In this document: positions 1 to 11,184 of the stretch, piece after piece
Numbering within the stretch: the first letter of the stretch is position 1
Layout: the number at the start of each line of letters is the position of its first letter
Translations under genes and position numbers: made by a program
Notes under the pieces: generated by a model
Databases searched by the model: none
What the model saw: the letters and a program-made list of their open reading frames with translations, nothing else
Told to the model about the DNA's origin: nothing
Origin: a virus
UHGV virus genome: UHGV-0276404
Strand: one strand, 5' to 3'
DNA: 14,666 nucleotides

Positions 1-90
1 CAGCAGCACAGCAGCACAGCAGCACAGCAGCACAGCAGCACAGCAGCACAGCAGCACAGCAGCACAGCAGCACAGCAGCACAGCAGCACA
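1..90. repeat. Perfect 8-bp tandem repeat (CAGCAGCA)n, about 11 copies, truncated by the window start
   Basis: Read directly: period-8 repeat from position 1 to 90, ending at gtgatataa. True length unknown because the window begins inside it. Confidence 0.95.
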
Positions 91-105
91 GTGATATAAT
101 TATAA

Positions 106-130
106 TAATGGCCGTAATGCGCGGCCATTA
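106..130. terminator. Hairpin just 3' of the tailspike stop (stem TAATGGCCG / CGGCCATTA, 7-nt loop)
   Basis: 9-bp inverted repeat 106-114 / 122-130 with AT-rich flanks on both sides; lies between the 8-bp repeat and the end of the minus-strand gene at 150. No clean U-run, so strength is uncertain. Confidence 0.45.
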
Positions 131-149
131 CATATTATTCATTATAGCA

Positions 150-3100
150 TTAACTTATTAGATCCGCTATTTTCTTTTCTTGATATGCCATCCTTATTAT
201 TTCAAATTCATCCATACGCATCATGTAAATAGATCTTGTCAATACCAAATTTCCATGTTTATCTTCTTTAATTTCATCTGCACCTTCTATTAATTTAATA
301 ATCCCAAATTCATTAACTGGAATTGGACAAGACTCAATATCAATAGGATAAAAATCACCAGATTCGTTTTCTCTTACCAAAACACTGGTTTCTTCATACG
401 TAATAAGACCATACTTCTTCCAATCAAGACCAGCTTTTGTAATTGCATCCTTAACTTGCTGCGCTACAACTCCAAAATGATATCTGGCATGTTCACTTCC
501 TTTTCGTAATATTTCATCCTTCATCTTCCACATTTGAAATTTTACACTACCCACGGCTTCAATAAGTTCAGTCGGTATATCCGAGAATTCATCTTTGTAA
601 TTAACATCTGAAACAACAGTGACAGCATTCTTGCTATATATGTTATTCCAGTATGCTGTCGTTGTACCATTATTAACTGTTCCTATCTGCCCTGTGGGAG
701 CAAAATAAGGATTATCATTAACTGGATTAGCTATCTCGACAAGAACTTGAGTACCGCCAAAGCTCCCGCCAGGGAACATACGAAACCTGTTTGGTAAGCG
801 ATAGTCATTAGAACCATAAGCATTCCAGCCAGCCCCATTTTCTACAGTACCACGACACCTAAATTCAACAACTTCTTGTATCTGCGGTGTTACATCATAT
901 CCACCACGTATAGACCAGTACTTATTATTGTCAGATTCTCTGCGGGAATCATGAACACGAAAAGCACCATTACTAGCATACTGAATGGCTTTTTTATATT
1001 CTGAAGTATTTTCTGAATACCCCCCCAATATCCAGTTCTCTCCTAATTTAAAGGAAACATCAAAAGCAGAACTTATAGAAGAAAGTGGTGAGTTATTAAC
1101 ACGAGTTGTCAAGGCGGAATTCAATGGTAATTCATTAGCAACCCCACGCGATTGTGAAATAAGAAATATCTGTTTTCCTCGTTTCGAATACACTCCATCG
1201 CTGTACTTTTTATCATTCGAGTATTCCCCACCACTAACTTTATTTGTTATCGCCCACATTCTAAATCCATCGGGATCATCCGGAGCAATACCAGAAGCAG
1301 TAGAAAAAGCGGAATAATTCTTTCCTTTGTAAGTTATAATAGATGCTCCAGAATCCCAATTATCCATAGTTAGAATAATAAGGTCTCCTTCATACATATC
1401 TATACCTTCAGGTTCAAATGAATGGGGGGTCCCATACTTTGGATTATCCATAAGATTTTTGTATCCATAAAGAGAACGAGCCCCCTCAAATGAAAATTCA
1501 GCAAGAATATTACCAGAATAATCAAACTTCTGAATAATATGCAACATAAACGGATGTGTATATCCCCTTAATATATAGATGTACTTACCATCACTGGCAA
1601 CATCTTGAATAACATGAGTATCAGTTCCGCGCTGCGGATGTGGAATCCTGAAATAATACAATGGTCTTGCGTCCAAACTATTGTCAAGGGATTCTACGTG
1701 TATCCTGCTGTAAACAAATACATACCAGGCATCATCATCTGCTGTGCTATCAGTTGCAACAAGAACAACATACCTTCCATCTGAAGATACACACGGGGTT
1801 GCTGAATTATAATTCTGATAAGGATGACCAGAACCAGAATATCCAAAAAGCTGATAAGTAATCACATCAGATTCAGATGTGCTGCTCCCTTTCCAAATTA
1901 ATTTTGAATAACCTTTTCCTCCATCATTTCCTCGATATGTAGGCTGGGTAACCATTTGGGTATAAATAAAAAGGTCATCATCAATAACTATCGTAGATAT
2001 TCCCTGATGGTTATTTAATATTGGTGCAGTGTAAGTAGTATTTTGCACTACTGAACCATCATCAGAAAACGAGTATTCAACCAGCCTGCGCTTCTCTAAA
2101 GCAGCTGCTGTTCCTGTACCAACCCCTGGACCATTCGCCGTAAATCGTACACCAATATTATTTTCAGCAGCCCCTATAGTTGTAAAATCAGTTGAACCTA
2201 TACTTACTATTTCATATTCAATTCCGGTTATGAAGTCACCAGCTGATGTTACTTTAGAGTTGAAGTTTCCACTACCTTCAGCACTGCCAACAACCGTTTG
2301 TAAAATAAATAATTTTTTACCATTATAATTCGCATAAGCACACCCTTGACTTGTAGCCTCACCATTTGGAAAAACTTGGGACTCACCAAAACCCATAAAT
2401 GCTTCCATTAAATGGCGTTGCACCAATGTATTACTGATATTATTACGAAGAGAAAGTAGATGACCAGTTTTGGAAAGAATCATCCCTTCCCCTGTCATTT
2501 TGCTTACATCTACTTTCAACGTATCAACAAGATATACTCCAGGTGGAACATAAGCATTTTCAGGAGCCAGAATAAAAGAATTCGTATCATCAGTTATACC
2601 ATCTCCAACAGCAGCATAATCTTTCACACTTACTGTATCACGCATCTTATCCTGGAACGTTCTGTATACAGCTCCAGCACCATACTGGATAAACCATCCG
2701 AAACCACCGACAACACCAGCAATTGCAGCATCCACATACTTACGCATTGAACGATTATTTACAGCGTCCTGCTCAAGTGATGGATCTGCAAGGTTAGAAA
2801 TTTTGTTTTGCTTTGCATCGTAATATTTTGCAAGCAGCGAGGGCTTCATCAATGCACGTCTGAACCACCCAAAACATCGCTGGATCAGCATCGTCAGGTA
2901 GTCGAATGCATCCTCATGAATTTCGGGGAAAAATTTTCCCTGATTGCGAAGATCAGTCTCCTGCACCACATCAAGCACACGCTCTATCGTAATTCGCCAG
3001 CCAGCAGCAAGCGGCGACGGAAGAACCACTTCACCGCCACTATAAGTGCCCGCTCCAGTTACCTTATAACCGGTATCAAGCACCAATTCTGTTACGTTCC

Positions 3101-3224
3101 CGTTCAGATCAGACACCTGAACAACCAGGTCGGATTTTTTGAAAATACGGAAGGTATACGGAAATGATGTCGTAACTCCGTTACCGGTGTATTCGTTGTG
3201 GTCAACTTCGGTTGAGACCGTCAT
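150..3224 (-). CDS. Tailspike / tail fibre with probable depolymerase: T7 gp17-like N-terminal adaptor, pectate-lyase-like beta-helix, C-terminal intramolecular chaperone (peptidase S74-like)
   Basis: 1024-aa ORF; ATG at 3224 preceded by GGAG 7 nt upstream. N-terminus (EYTGNGVTTSFPYTF...) has the pattern of the T7 gp17 virion-attachment domain. VSVKDYAAVGDGITDDTNSF matches the hallmark start of right-handed beta-helix (Pectate_lyase_3) domains. C-terminus (FQMWKMK...ARYHFGVVAQQVKDAI) resembles the auto-cleaving chaperone domain of endosialidase-type tailspikes. Gene looks AT-rich by eye relative to the terminase region. Confidence 0.85.
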   Translation of the reverse strand: MTVSTEVDHNEYTGNGVTTSFPYTFRIFKKSDLVVQVSDLNGNVTELVLDTGYKVTGAGTYSGGEVVLPSPLAAGWRITIERVLDVVQETDLRNQGKFFPEIHEDAFDYLTMLIQRCFGWFRRALMKPSLLAKYYDAKQNKISNLADPSLEQDAVNNRSMRKYVDAAIAGVVGGFGWFIQYGAGAVYRTFQDKMRDTVSVKDYAAVGDGITDDTNSFILAPENAYVPPGVYLVDTLKVDVSKMTGEGMILSKTGHLLSLRNNISNTLVQRHLMEAFMGFGESQVFPNGEATSQGCAYANYNGKKLFILQTVVGSAEGSGNFNSKVTSAGDFITGIEYEIVSIGSTDFTTIGAAENNIGVRFTANGPGVGTGTAAALEKRRLVEYSFSDDGSVVQNTTYTAPILNNHQGISTIVIDDDLFIYTQMVTQPTYRGNDGGKGYSKLIWKGSSTSESDVITYQLFGYSGSGHPYQNYNSATPCVSSDGRYVVLVATDSTADDDAWYVFVYSRIHVESLDNSLDARPLYYFRIPHPQRGTDTHVIQDVASDGKYIYILRGYTHPFMLHIIQKFDYSGNILAEFSFEGARSLYGYKNLMDNPKYGTPHSFEPEGIDMYEGDLIILTMDNWDSGASIITYKGKNYSAFSTASGIAPDDPDGFRMWAITNKVSGGEYSNDKKYSDGVYSKRGKQIFLISQSRGVANELPLNSALTTRVNNSPLSSISSAFDVSFKLGENWILGGYSENTSEYKKAIQYASNGAFRVHDSRRESDNNKYWSIRGGYDVTPQIQEVVEFRCRGTVENGAGWNAYGSNDYRLPNRFRMFPGGSFGGTQVLVEIANPVNDNPYFAPTGQIGTVNNGTTTAYWNNIYSKNAVTVVSDVNYKDEFSDIPTELIEAVGSVKFQMWKMKDEILRKGSEHARYHFGVVAQQVKDAITKAGLDWKKYGLITYEETSVLVRENESGDFYPIDIESCPIPVNEFGIIKLIEGADEIKEDKHGNLVLTRSIYMMRMDEFEIIRMAYQEKKIADLIS

Positions 3225-7256: not shown

Positions 7257-8366
7257 TTACTTCCCTAGCATGAACTGCGATGGTGGGATCAGAAAGTCGT
7301 TACCCTGTTCACGCTCAACACGGCGCTGATAACGCTCAAGAGAGCCTGGGTCGCCAATCTGTTTAATCCAGCCGTCAACCTTTCCTGGGCCAGCGTTATA
7401 GGCAGCTACTGCCAGAACCGGGTTATTGTCGTATTTCTTCATCTGCGCGCCGAAATAAGCTTGCCCCAAGCGGGCATTATAGCGCGGGTCATTCAACCAT
7501 TTATCTCGGTCCCACGGCACACCAGCAAGGCGGGCAGCTTCGGGGCCAGTATCTTCCGTCACCTGCGCTACGCCAACAGCGCCTTTTGGCGACACCAGAG
7601 GTGTTCCGTCCTTTCCGTACTGATTTCCGCCACTCTCCTGCCAGATTATTGCAGAGAATAACTGCGCCTCACTCGGTGTATCGGTTACCTCAATCTTGCC
7701 GTTCGGCCCCATCATCTGTTGATACATCGGCACATACCACGCCTCCGCCGCACCGTTCGCGGCATTCTCGCGCCACGAAACCCAGTTCTGTTCGATCTCT
7801 TCCTGACTCTGGCCGTGGGCTTCGCCGTAAGCGATGATGCTATGATATGCCTTCAATCCTGCCTGGTTTGCCATTGTCGGGTTACGGAACTGCATCGATA
7901 GGTTTTTTAGTGTCGCATCCTGCATATCCGCCTCATACTGGCGAACCTGTCCTATTTCGTACCTCCCGGCCTGCGTAGTGAACTGAATACGCTGTTGCTG
8001 CGCCTGCTGCATGAAAGCATTACGAGCCTGTTCATCTGGCAGCGACATAGCCAGTTGTTCAACCTGAGCATCAAACTGCTGCGTATACTCATGGCCTTTT
8101 CCAATAGCATTTTTCCCTTTCAGGTTAAGCAATCCTGTTTCAGGATTATTCAGCAGATCACTGCCTGTCTGACTGAGTTTAAGGGATGCCTCCTGAACAA
8201 AGGCAATATTGGCACGCTGTTTTGCCTGACCAAAAACATCAATTGCCTCTGTCCCTGCCCGAACAAAAGCATCACCAATACCTGGCTGAGAAAACGTCTG
8301 CAAGCCTGCTGACTGAACTCCACGACTCTCAACCTGACGTCCGGATACTGTTGGTACGACTGGCAT
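7257..8366 (-). CDS. Internal-virion-type protein with C-terminal lytic transglycosylase (SLT) domain
   Basis: Start ATG at 8366-8364 overlaps the upstream stop (TAATG) with GGAGGA 5 nt upstream; the ORF-track N-terminal extension to 8441 is rejected. SLT motifs IIWQESGGNQYG...GAVGVAQV...AYNAGPGKV; Gln-rich N-terminal region. Confidence 0.85.
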   Translation of the reverse strand: MPVVPTVSGRQVESRGVQSAGLQTFSQPGIGDAFVRAGTEAIDVFGQAKQRANIAFVQEASLKLSQTGSDLLNNPETGLLNLKGKNAIGKGHEYTQQFDAQVEQLAMSLPDEQARNAFMQQAQQQRIQFTTQAGRYEIGQVRQYEADMQDATLKNLSMQFRNPTMANQAGLKAYHSIIAYGEAHGQSQEEIEQNWVSWRENAANGAAEAWYVPMYQQMMGPNGKIEVTDTPSEAQLFSAIIWQESGGNQYGKDGTPLVSPKGAVGVAQVTEDTGPEAARLAGVPWDRDKWLNDPRYNARLGQAYFGAQMKKYDNNPVLAVAAYNAGPGKVDGWIKQIGDPGSLERYQRRVEREQGNDFLIPPSQFMLGK

Positions 8367-8911
8367 TATAATCCTCCGGGTAATCTGGTTCCTGCTGCTG
8401 CCCCGATTGGCGCAGGAGTGCTTTGAGTAAACGGACTCCACGTCCCACCAAACATCTGGTACGCACCGTATGCCTTCAGAGGCGCAGTGAGCAATGTTGT
8501 TGCTGCTCCTACATTCCCCTGTTTACGGGCTGAACTGGCTTCTGCTTTATAGTTGGCAGCCTGCACCTGATAACCGTAAGCCTCGCGTTGCGCGTTATTC
8601 ACCGTCGTTAGCGAATCAAGAGCACCAAACTGAGCAGTGTCACCAAATATATCCAGCGCGTTACCTGTAGATAAATCAGCGCCGGTAGCCCCCATTGTCG
8701 CCGCCTGTGTACCAAGCCGCTGTCGGGTCTCTCTGCGCCGTTGCTCAGCTTCAGCGTTACCTCTGTTTATTGCATCATTTGCCTGAGCTGTGGCTATATC
8801 TGCGTTCGCTTCTGCAACCTTCGAGGCATACTTTCCCTGTTGGTACTGGGTGTATGCCTGAATGCCACTCATGGCGAGCATTGCGCCACCAGCAATAACC
8901 GGATCGCACAT
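8366..8911 (-). CDS. Putative internal virion / ejection protein (181 aa, Ala/Gln/Gly-rich)
   Basis: ATG at 8911 overlaps the upstream stop (TAATG); operon context between a virion-type protein and the SLT protein. No recognisable catalytic motif. Confidence 0.55.
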   Translation of the reverse strand: MCDPVIAGGAMLAMSGIQAYTQYQQGKYASKVAEANADIATAQANDAINRGNAEAEQRRRETRQRLGTQAATMGATGADLSTGNALDIFGDTAQFGALDSLTTVNNAQREAYGYQVQAANYKAEASSARKQGNVGAATTLLTAPLKAYGAYQMFGGTWSPFTQSTPAPIGAAAGTRLPGGL

Positions 8912-9375
8912 TATTTTCTCTCCATGTGAAATCTGTGGAAATTAAGACCAAGAGCACCATAAGGCGCGGCTTCTTCAAGCCTGAATCCAAGCCAGTGCAG
9001 CCATGCTTTGGCAACATGGTTTCGCTCATCGACGTAGTTTTCCAGGCGCGGATAAACTGCCAGCATCTGCTGCAATACAGGGCGGCAGTGGCGAAGAAAT
9101 GTCTTCTGATATTTTTCAATACGGCTGGTTCCTACCAGCCAGGGCGTACCATTGCCACCGATCATTGACGCCGGAGATACGCCAAACATGGTTACCAGTT
9201 CTCCGTTCGCAAATCCTGACCAGGCCATAGTCGCAGTGCGAAGACCAACACGCAGCGCATCTTCGGTAGTCATCAGCGATACCGCATACAGTTCGTCAAT
9301 ATCAGCCTGACGAACATCCGGCAAAATCATCTGAAGATGCTCTTCGGTAGCGGGAACAATTCGAACATCGATCAT
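8911..9375 (-). CDS. Hypothetical virion-operon protein (154 aa); weak GNAT-like C-terminal motif
   Basis: ATG at 9375 overlaps the upstream stop (TGATG). C-terminal NHVAKAWLHWLGFRLEE loosely resembles the acetyl-CoA-binding region of GNAT acetyltransferases; recalled from memory, unverified. Confidence 0.5.
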   Translation of the reverse strand: MIDVRIVPATEEHLQMILPDVRQADIDELYAVSLMTTEDALRVGLRTATMAWSGFANGELVTMFGVSPASMIGGNGTPWLVGTSRIEKYQKTFLRHCRPVLQQMLAVYPRLENYVDERNHVAKAWLHWLGFRLEEAAPYGALGLNFHRFHMERK

Positions 9376-9965
9376 CAGAATCCCCCAACAGTAAGGCGAG
9401 GAATAACGGCAAGAACAGACAGCGGCAACGGATCAAGCTGACGGATTTTTACACGTCCGTTTTTGCCCCAGTTACTGTCCAGTTTCACTTCTACTTTTCC
9501 GGTAGCATCATCAACAGGATCATCGTAGAACTCGAATTCACGCTGTGGATATTCGTACCATTTACCGCCGGGCGTAGTCGCCCAGATGCCGCGACTGGCA
9601 TTCACAACCAGAGTAACGGAGGGGATCACCTGTTTTTTGTCCAGCAGCGTTTCCTGTCCGTTAATGTTGATATCCAGTGTTTCGAATTCAGCAGTTATTG
9701 GCAGGCCGATGTGCACTACAGCCCCCGGAGATTCCAGCGTGACGGCACCTCCGGAAACCACTTTCTGTGGTTCCACGTTCGCATCAGAGAGAATGTTTAC
9801 GGTCTGGCCTTCAAGATGAGACAGGCCTCCAAATGTCCGGCGCGCCATCTGCCAGTTCGTGGTGGCCACATTCCTGAGGGATGGCGGGACGTTCCTGTTA
9901 GCACGAACCACTACAGCGGTATTGCTGGTTACAGAAATAATGTCGCAACGTAATTCTTTTGACAC
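9375..9965 (-). CDS. Hypothetical structural-operon protein; 5' end and true start uncertain (possible fusion remnant)
   Basis: The frame is open from 9965, but the first in-frame start is GTG with no SD and it overlaps the portal-like ORF by 37 nt in another frame. The internal ATG at 9848 also lacks a good SD. Confidence 0.45.
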   Translation of the reverse strand: MSKELRCDIISVTSNTAVVVRANRNVPPSLRNVATTNWQMARRTFGGLSHLEGQTVNILSDANVEPQKVVSGGAVTLESPGAVVHIGLPITAEFETLDININGQETLLDKKQVIPSVTLVVNASRGIWATTPGGKWYEYPQREFEFYDDPVDDATGKVEVKLDSNWGKNGRVKIRQLDPLPLSVLAVIPRLTVGGF

Positions 9966-10459
9966 CTCATCGCCAGTATCAGGATCAGTTCCGGTATCGG
10001 GAATGGCATTGTGCGAATGATGTCCTCGTCATCCTCCAGCACTGCCATTGCACCAGTGCTGTATGTGCCGAGGCTTCCGTATAACTGCGGCAGCGACTGA
10101 TAGAGATTCGACTTATTGAACATATCGTTCATGCGGTTCTGCACCGCCTCAAGCCACAACTTAACAGGGCCATAATCCATCATTTCAGGATCTGGCGTAG
10201 CCAGGCGAAACCACGGACGCGCGGGGCTTGTGATGCCTGACATCATGCCGCTGGCGAGAGTGCGCGCCGCCATAGTCCCGGTCGAATCAATAATGCGTGT
10301 ATTGCGTCGATCGTTACGGTTGACCTCAGAAGTCAGAAAGCGGGAACCACGCGGGTTGATGTAATCACTCAACTCGCGCCAGTGCGGCTCGAACGACTGA
10401 CGCTCGCTTTCAAGTTGTGCGAACTGTTTGTTCAATCGCTCTTTAGTTGTTTCCGCCAT
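9929..10459 (-). pseudogene. Portal (head-tail connector) N-terminal fragment, T7 gp8-like, only ~176 aa
   Basis: ATG at 10459 with GGAG 8 nt upstream. ERQSFEPHWRELSDYINP...TLASGMMSGITSPARPWFRLA matches the N-terminal pattern of podovirus portals as I recall T7 gp8 (DRAPYETRAQNCAQYTIP...LASKLMLALFPMQTWMRLT). The ORF ends after 176 aa, whereas full portals are 500+ aa. Confidence 0.5.
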
Positions 10460-11107: not shown

Positions 11108-11184
11108 GTGGCATTAGCTCAGTTGGACAGAGCAACCGCCTTCTAAGCGGTTGGTCGCAGGTTCGAATCCTGCATGCCACGCCA
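11108..11184 (+). tRNA. tRNA-Arg (anticodon UCU, reads AGA)
   Basis: Hand-folded cloverleaf: acceptor GTGGCAT/ATGCCAC, D-arm GCTC-AGTTGGACA-GAGC, anticodon arm ACCGC-CTTCTAA-GCGGT, variable TGGTC, T-arm GCAGG-TTCGAAT-CCTGC, discriminator G and encoded CCA. 77 nt. Confidence 0.9.

Follow-up and report, generated by a model that had tools for sequence, protein, structure and literature searches.

What does the tailspike encoded at one end of the viral genome UHGV-0276404 recognize, and with what kind of fold? The stretch of DNA analyzed here (the window; 14,666 nucleotides) is part of an epsilon15/phiV10-like prophage of Escherichia coli, and its tailspike gene is a single open reading frame of 1,024 amino acids on the minus strand, at 150 to 3224. 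A first-pass annotation had described the product as a three-part tailspike—virion anchor, receptor module, and autocatalytic chaperone—with a K1F-endosialidase-like architecture, a pectate-lyase-type beta-helix at its center, and a capsule or lipopolysaccharide (LPS) target. All three modules were recovered, with the chaperone profile PF13884 scoring above its cut-off, and the overall plan is the same as that of K1F; the center was modeled as a five-bladed propeller instead. We read the protein as the single tailspike of an epsilon15/phiV10-like prophage, built of a gp20-type anchor, a propeller, and a Peptidase_S74 (S74) chaperone, and probably specific for capsules of the K18/K22/K100 type.

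Domain architecture of the tailspike

The gene and its parts are located as follows (aa, amino acid residues of the product).

150..3224, minus strand: complete tailspike gene, 1,024 aa, from the open reading frame list and translation; stop codon TAA at 150-152
2700..3224, minus strand: N-terminal virion-binding (anchor) domain of the epsilon15 gp20 type, aa 1-175, from tblastn and phmmer
2439..2639, minus strand: neck with a beta-helix N-cap-like motif, aa 196-262; holds the recombination breakpoint at aa ~209
1125..2438, minus strand: predicted five-bladed beta-propeller receptor module, aa 263-700
2100..2294, minus strand: ~60-aa module inserted in the first blade, aa 311-375; contains YEIVSIGSTDFTTIGAAENNIGVRFTANG
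1245..1349, minus strand: CBM5/12-like stretch after blade 5, aa 626-660, IITYKGKNYSA...PDDPDGFRMWAITNK
612..1124, minus strand: beta domain following the propeller, and stalk before the chaperone, aa 701-871
153..611, minus strand: Peptidase_S74 intramolecular chaperone, aa 872-1024, from PF13884 and phmmer

A total of 19 homologues with 30 to 47% identity were gathered and aligned with the query (20 sequences), and the AF2 model of aa 196 to 870 based on this alignment was all-beta (pLDDT, 79.9; pTM, 0.76). Its blades start at the motifs QGCAY (residue 293), HQGIS (406), SSDGRY (480), QDVASDGKY (540), and FEPEG (603). A Foldseek search of the PDB matched the model to the staphylococcal phage receptor-binding proteins of NF5, P68, 80alpha, and phi11 at E values of ~1e-9 to 1e-8, as well as to endosialidase NF (3ju4; E = 2.9e-9) and the K1E spike (E = 1.7e-8; PDB/BFVD). 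Five-bladed propellers fit the fold better than six-bladed ones in the structure search, and many of the neighbors ranked after the phage receptor-binding proteins were carbohydrate-active five-bladed propellers. By far the top match in BFVD was Bacillus phage GA-1's neck appendage protein (E = 3.4e-41; TM, 0.58), with 24% identity over 609 columns, and tblastn reached GA-1 gene 12 at E = 2e-50 across 91% of the module. With the narrower sequence profile A2, the central domain had no match among PDB sequences; the broader 24-sequence profile A3 (hmmsearch) matched 9m7x (E = 1.3e-4), 6v8i (E = 7e-4), and 5efv (E = 1.1e-3), and the motifs GH, MQG, and EPEG are common to the window family and the staphylococcal receptor-binding proteins. 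PF21311 (Phage_RBD_prop) matched 6 of the 20 family members at E ≤ 0.01, and an NCBIfam search with the tailspike returned no match. Model and profile searches together place aa ~263 to 700 as a predicted five-bladed propeller that is homologous to the GA-1 neck appendage; a more distant homology links it to the wall-teichoic-acid-binding platform domains of the staphylococcal phages phi11, 80alpha, P68, and NF5.

The same propeller was found in well over 100 cluster representatives (clusters at 50% identity) in an exhaustive profile search, and four of its residues—H406, Q540, E604, and E606—were 94 to 100% conserved in 126 representatives with a median identity of 28%. The strings SSDGRY (480-485) and ASDGKY (543-548), previously read as weak Asp-box-like sequences, are likewise real and nearly invariant repeats, but they form hairpin turns of blades 3 and 4 rather than canonical sialidase Asp-boxes. 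The PHROG that holds the module is labeled "unknown function." In metagenomic P22-like phages a homologue occupies the tailspike slot, and the productive P22-like phage Gally carries a module with 31% identity. No functional data were found in the literature on the homologous spikes of phages Gally, 683R2, PGN829.1, and Pollock. An A2-profile search of genome representatives for related loci returned only two, from an Alcaligenaceae bacterium and from Pseudomonas.

The reading of the central region as a pectate-lyase-type right-handed beta-helix, which would make the spike a glycosidase or lyase depolymerase, has a real starting point in the neck, where VKDYAAVGDGITDDT (aa 200-214) is a genuine beta-helix N-cap signature. 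This string, like SSDGRY, ASDGKY, and DEFSDIPTE, is present in the translation as quoted in the first-pass annotation. The corresponding profile, PF12708 (Pect-lyase_RHGA_epim), matches the neck and 15 of 20 homologues, and the family profile aligns with the start of solved beta-helix proteins—Sf6/HK620-type tailspikes, polygalacturonase, and phi29 gp12. These matches end early, with PF12708 restricted to aa 198 to 235 (profile positions 2 to 48 of 213; 19.2 bits against a cut-off of 27) and the solved proteins aligned over only their first ~40 to 70 residues. A beta-helix fold of the central region is contradicted by the AF2 model and by Foldseek, which returned propeller matches only, and we regard it as highly improbable. 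A beta-helix cap motif alone is not equivalent to a beta-helix depolymerase, and the propeller assignment corrects a tempting misannotation.

Two further elements decorate the propeller. The ~60-aa insert in the first blade has the pattern G..YEI.s.GtTDFT.iGA..N.vG..FTAtG and had no match in Pfam. It is missing in the distant homologues P0017 to P0020, is present in a second copy in P0004 to P0014, and reaches 11 copies in the metagenomic P0100; it also has 46% identity to a structural protein of cyanophage S-TIM54. After blade 5, aa 626 to 660 resemble a CBM5/12 domain. PF02839 (CBM_5_12) matched three homologues (best E = 1.3e-6), and the family profile matched the chitin-binding domains of chitinases weakly (E = 0.3), so that the CBM5/12 character of this stretch in the window protein is suggestive only.

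Past the propeller, aa ~731 to 832 were modeled as beta strands (pLDDT, 55 to 83), with the last ~40 residues disordered in the monomer model, and the stalk profile PF12219 (End_tail_spike) matched 11 of the 20 family members. The C-terminal aa 872 to 1024 are identified by homology as an S74 chaperone. PF13884 scored 35.9 bits against a cut-off of 22 (E = 9.6e-9) over its full profile (positions 1 to 58; aa 872 to 933) and was found in 18 of the 20 family members; phmmer matched 6eu4 (E = 2e-22) and the GA-1 chaperone 3gud (E = 8e-12). The predicted scissile and catalytic residues are S872 and K877 in SDVNYK, a Ser-x4-Lys dyad at window positions 594 to 611, of which the Ser, Asp, and Lys hardly vary within the family. 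In 3GUD, the released chaperone of GA-1, the sequence begins with SDERHK, and its residue-1 Ser aligns with S872. In T5 pb1 the cut is made by the pair Ser1264/Lys1269, and the released chaperone takes the Ser with it (PMC4690869); the S872/K877 spacing is the same. Given this equivalence, the chaperone is predicted to release itself at S872, leaving a mature spike of aa 1 to 871. Cleavage had earlier been proposed at a Ser within DEFSDIPTE (aa 878-886), but that residue is not conserved and lies 10 residues downstream of S872.

The N terminus had been called a T7 gp17-like adaptor. Its adaptor role stands, and its family is a different one. By tblastn, aa 1 to 165 have 66 to 70% identity to the tailspike N termini of epsilon15-like Salmonella and E. 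coli phages (VB_ST_E15, SPN1S, SPC32N, O157 typing phages, and PAS61) and 95 to 96% identity to E. coli prophage fragments, and they are related to many other podovirus spikes. With phmmer, the anchor matched the N terminus of the solved marine-phage spike Dpo31 (E = 1.9e-32), a region described as a beta-sandwich followed by coiled coils (PMC13317679). The T7 gp17 family PF03906 scored 16 bits against a cut-off of 25.2 over 27 residues (aa 135 to 161), and neither the tallied organism names nor the listed rows for the 133 tblastn records included a T7-like phage. As far as sequence comparison goes, this is an adaptor of the epsilon15 gp20 type and not a demonstrable T7 gp17 homologue.

Capsule type of the carriers and the candidate receptor

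The receptor module was present in 5 of 5,426 complete E. coli genomes: SW070919, MLI121, MLI114, E100341, and AST205. All five carry kpsE. In MLI121, region 2 of the kps locus consists of three genes, encoding a hypothetical protein, a bifunctional cytidylyltransferase/short-chain dehydrogenase/reductase (SDR), and a 1,107-aa CDP-glycerol glycerophosphotransferase-family protein, which we read as a CDP-ribitol-synthase-like enzyme and a 1,107-aa TagF-like protein next to the hypothetical one. The published gene content of the K18_K22 and K100 ribosyl-ribitol-phosphate capsules is the same (PMC13171606). The TagF-like gene occurred in 19 of the 5,426 genomes, including all five carriers. A NeuO-like acetyltransferase gene, which together with the receptor module makes up a low-GC cassette, was found in 11 genomes (7 strains), every one of them among the 19 TagF-positive genomes and none outside. 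The O types of the carriers differ: MLI121 is O15, and its O15 wzy gene was shared by MLI114 and missing in E100341, AST205, and SW070919, whereas 98 O15 genomes do not have the cassette. Since the cassette is confined to the 19 genomes of one kps type and the O types differ, it follows capsule type and not O type. Because the module occurs only in strains with a ribitol-phosphate kps locus regardless of O type, the most likely receptor is a group 2 capsule of the K18/K22/K100 family, a teichoic-acid-like ribosyl-ribitol-phosphate polymer. The expected link to a host surface polysaccharide type is thus borne out by co-occurrence with one kps type, and of the two targets named earlier, capsule and LPS, the group 2 capsule type is tracked while the O-antigen is not.

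In the mechanism that we propose, the C-terminal chaperone would trimerize three chains and then cleave itself off before Ser872 to give the 871-residue mature spike, with three propellers displayed around the axis. Each propeller would bind the host glycopolymer in a pocket at its center, where the invariant His406, Gln540, Glu604, and Glu606 form the lining. The repeat-variable, NeuO-like enzyme of the low-GC cassette might O-acetylate the same polymer and might thereby change phage sensitivity, as NeuO does for K1.

Several points weigh against a capsule-specific propeller spike. Epsilon15-like phages classically use O-antigen. The five carriers (seven cassette strains) may share ancestry, in which case a vertically inherited prophage could give the appearance of receptor specificity. 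Gene-by-gene reading covered the kps locus of MLI121 only, this locus does not separate K18_K22 from K100 (both TagF-like proteins have 1,107 aa), and the kTYPr supplement holds no strain-level K18_K22 or K100 calls for these genomes. On the structural side, the fold is a monomer prediction from a shallow alignment of 20 sequences, and PF21311 reached 18.5 to 20.3 bits over aa 509 to 611, below its gathering score of 23.7. No Gram-negative-phage member of the propeller family has an enzymatic or binding assay, and the ligand site of phi11 Gp45 itself has only been modeled (PMC4901313). The prophage in the window is also without capsid, portal, and tail genes, and the tailspike is probably not used for virions here.

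The concern about ancestry leads to the most serious competing explanation, in which the spike recognizes O-antigen as in epsilon15 and phiV10, and the association with capsule type is a by-product of the clonal descent of the lysogens. The O-antigen use of related phages is general knowledge, the carriers are few and possibly related, and the chromosomal position of the prophage is similar in most of them. Against this, O types differ among the carriers, with O15 wzy in two of five; the 98 O15 genomes are without the cassette, which was never found outside the 19 ribitol-phosphate kps genomes; and the neighboring enzyme is nearest to capsule O-acetyltransferases. We consider recognition of O-antigen unlikely on this balance. 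The O15 O-antigen in particular was rejected as the receptor since only two of the five carriers are O15. Considerably further from the data is a divergent GH58-like endosialidase acting on polysialic acid or another sialic acid polymer, as in CUS-3 and the K1F phages. The Foldseek matches to 3ju4 and the K1E spike, the S74 chaperone, the End_tail_spike stalk matches in homologues, and the NeuO-like neighbor all fit such an enzyme, and this neighbor suggested a K1 target and hence a search for neuS in the carriers. The gene was present in 0 of 5 carrier genomes and in 329 other genomes, and with neuS absent from all five, a K1 or polysialic acid target was rejected. In addition, the best fold match is five-bladed, not six-bladed, Pfam searches returned neither End_beta_propel nor an Asp-box/FRIP signature, and the sequence homology is instead with the phi11/GA-1 family. 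An endosialidase of this kind is therefore, in our assessment, as improbable as the central beta-helix.

Within the reading of a K18/K22/K100-specific propeller, it is also possible that the propeller is a true depolymerase, either a teichoicase-like phosphodiesterase or a ribofuranosidase, with a His/Gln/Glu/Glu active site; we put this at slightly less than an even chance. H406, Q540, E604, and E606 are invariant across Bacillus, Staphylococcus, and E. coli hosts, many structural neighbors are carbohydrate-active five-bladed propellers, a short-tailed phage has to cross the capsule, and propeller "depolymerases" are a recognized, uncharacterized class (PMC12491483). The closest solved relatives, those of phi11 and P68, are described only as binders, however; the conserved residues might just as well serve to hold a structural metal or to bind a common sugar-phosphate moiety; and no sequence match to a CAZy family was found.

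As a separate observation on one carrier, MLI121 (NZ_CP117016.1, 1.95 to 2.13 Mb; loci L012 to L015) has an island of ~155 kb between pheV and the kps locus. Within it are a chromosomal CTX-M-15/TEM-1/mer/integron resistance region, pic, and the AAI and Sci-1 type VI secretion clusters of enteroaggregative E. coli (EAEC).

The convergent acetyltransferase and related systems

The gene that runs toward the tailspike enters the window with its 3' end.

1..161, plus strand: 3' end of a NeuO-like hexapeptide O-acetyltransferase gene; stop codon TAG at 159-161; 12-bp overlap with the tailspike end

The full gene (locus L001, 1911 to 3161) encodes a left-handed-beta-helix (LbH) acyltransferase whose best PDB match is NeuO (3jqy; E = 3.2e-18), and its GC content (0.37) is as low as that of the receptor module. 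An 8-bp tandem repeat, GCACAGCA, at window positions ~1 to 91 forms the 3' part of the gene, so that position 1 of the window falls inside it, and Tandem Repeats Finder (TRF) counted 50.8 copies. The copy number is 50 in SW070919, 42 in MLI121, and 16 in AST205, giving three different C-terminal frames. Each of the three repeat frames stays open, with the same (AAQQHSST)n peptide as its product, so that which of three C-terminal tails is made depends on copy number modulo 3; one tail is hydrophobic (DIIIIMAVMRGHYILFIIALTY). NeuO is a prophage-borne O-acetyltransferase of the polysialic acid capsule (PMC3046976), and its modification reportedly alters K1 phage sensitivity (PMC13001214).

A 2026 capsule-typing study did not find the K22-to-K18 acetyltransferase gene in the kps locus and predicted that it lies elsewhere (PMC13171606). 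The acetyltransferase described here, found only in genomes with a K18/K22/K100-type kps locus, is a candidate for that enzyme and so for the unexplained serotype difference between K18 and K22. In its boldest form, the cassette would be a K18/K22-specific module of a temperate phage, the spike would represent the phi11/GA-1 teichoic-acid-type propeller in its first Gram-negative use, redirected to a ribosyl-ribitol-phosphate capsule that resembles teichoic acid, and the neighbor would be the K22-to-K18 acetyltransferase, switched by the 8-bp repeat; we offer this scenario tentatively and think it rather doubtful as a whole.

In EC0026B (locus L016, 2856 to 5627) and PAR, an acetyltransferase with 99% identity is paired with a different spike of 923 aa, in a sister prophage whose host has this capsule type as well. 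The EC0026B spike has the same anchor, and its center is only distantly related, retaining iGHq, MQAVACDG, and YEPE, which are motifs of this propeller superfamily. The two spike alleles may correspond to acetylated and nonacetylated capsule.

The tailspike belongs to a known but poorly characterized kind, the GA-1 gp12/phi11-type propeller spike with an S74 chaperone. GA-1 gp12 (UniProt Q9FZW3; 3GUD) shares the body of propeller, stalk, and S74 chaperone, the last starting with S-D-x3-K, but differs in its phi29-like collar attachment, in place of the epsilon15 gp20-type anchor, and in its Gram-positive host; neither a solved receptor domain nor an assigned ligand exists for it. The closest solved folds are the five-bladed propeller platforms (PF21311) of phi11 Gp45 (5EFV), 80alpha gp61 (6V8I), the P68 tail fiber (6IAB), and NF5 Gp17 (9M7X). 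Those staphylococcal proteins have coiled-coil stems and C-terminal "tower" domains where the window protein has its epsilon15-type anchor and cleavable S74 chaperone, the ~60-aa inserted module is missing from them, and their ligand determinant is GlcNAc on teichoic acid. The K1F and K1E endosialidases resemble the window spike in having an anchor, a propeller with an inserted domain, a stalk, and a Ser-cleaved S74 chaperone, and the CUS-3 prophage resembles the locus in carrying NeuO, a variable-repeat LbH O-acetyltransferase, in addition to its endosialidase (PMC3046976). The endosialidases of K1F, K1E, and CUS-3, in contrast, have a six-bladed GH58 propeller for polysialic acid, and the window carriers are without neuS; moreover, the CUS-3 NeuO repeat is a 7-bp unit at the 5' end, whereas the window neighbor has an 8-bp unit at the 3' end. 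The tailspikes of epsilon15 (gp20) and phiV10 (Uetakevirus) share the genomic slot and the N-terminal domain (66 to 70% identity). Their receptor modules act on O-antigens and are annotated as right-handed beta-helices; in the window, this module is replaced from aa ~210 onward.

The comparison brings a widespread, uncharacterized tailspike module into a superfamily of teichoic-acid-binding platforms of Gram-positive phages, and because its occurrence follows that of a rare, teichoic-acid-like E. coli capsule, the module supplies a concrete candidate ligand for the propeller fold. The spike might serve as a reagent to type or strip K18/K22/K100 capsules, of which K100 cross-reacts with Haemophilus influenzae type b.

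Module exchange and state of the prophage

The first-pass annotation judged the gene to be more AT-rich than the terminase genes and proposed horizontal acquisition of the receptor module, and the first of these held when composition was computed (GC3, GC at third codon positions).

Tailspike aa 1-175: GC 0.47, GC3 0.45
Tailspike aa 211-850: GC 0.38, GC3 0.25
Tailspike aa 851-1024: GC 0.33, GC3 0.24
Large terminase gene terL: GC 0.54, GC3 0.61
terS: GC 0.47, GC3 0.52

The anchor resembles the flanks in GC, and the drop starts at aa ~175 to 210, the same place at which the DNA of sister prophages ceases to be homologous. Homology to other prophages stops at window positions ~2586 to 2700, and the allele of EC0026B keeps 98% identity as far as aa 209 and is unrelated from there on. 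The coincidence of the GC break, the end of homology, and the divergence of the sister allele at aa 209 indicates a mosaic gene with a conserved anchor and an exchanged receptor module. The low GC, the breakpoint, and the restriction to 5 of 5,426 genomes make the module look horizontally exchanged. No low-GC donor was identified among the closest homologues of the receptor module (41 to 47% identity), since these sit in phages of 51 to 56% GC.

Compared with strain SW070919 (NZ_CM129861.1), the window has 99.9% identity, and the prophage outside the spike has 96 to 97% identity to phiV10-like phages. In SW070919 the tailspike is broken by an IS3 element at aa ~197, and it is intact in the four other complete genomes (MLI121, MLI114, E100341, and AST205), where it has 99.9% DNA identity and is annotated as "tail fiber domain-containing protein." Three blocks of NZ_CM129861.1 are absent from the window, at 2631-2635, 7348-7352, and 9995-10003. 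They comprise the IS3 element and two blocks of structural genes of 5.8 and 6.5 kb (about 12 kb of structural genes), which covered internal virion proteins, tail proteins, the capsid, the protease, and most of the portal. The junctions have overlaps of 5 to 9 bp, with fused open reading frames at 7257-8441 and 9375-10459. With these structural blocks lost, the prophage in the window is defective while its tailspike is intact, and the spike is probably a remnant of a formerly functional phage.

A tRNA-Arg(TCT) gene lies at 11108-11184 on the plus strand, between the portal-side genes and a Gp49-family gene. Its presence is probably the reason for the many Synechococcus phage records returned by a search with the whole window.

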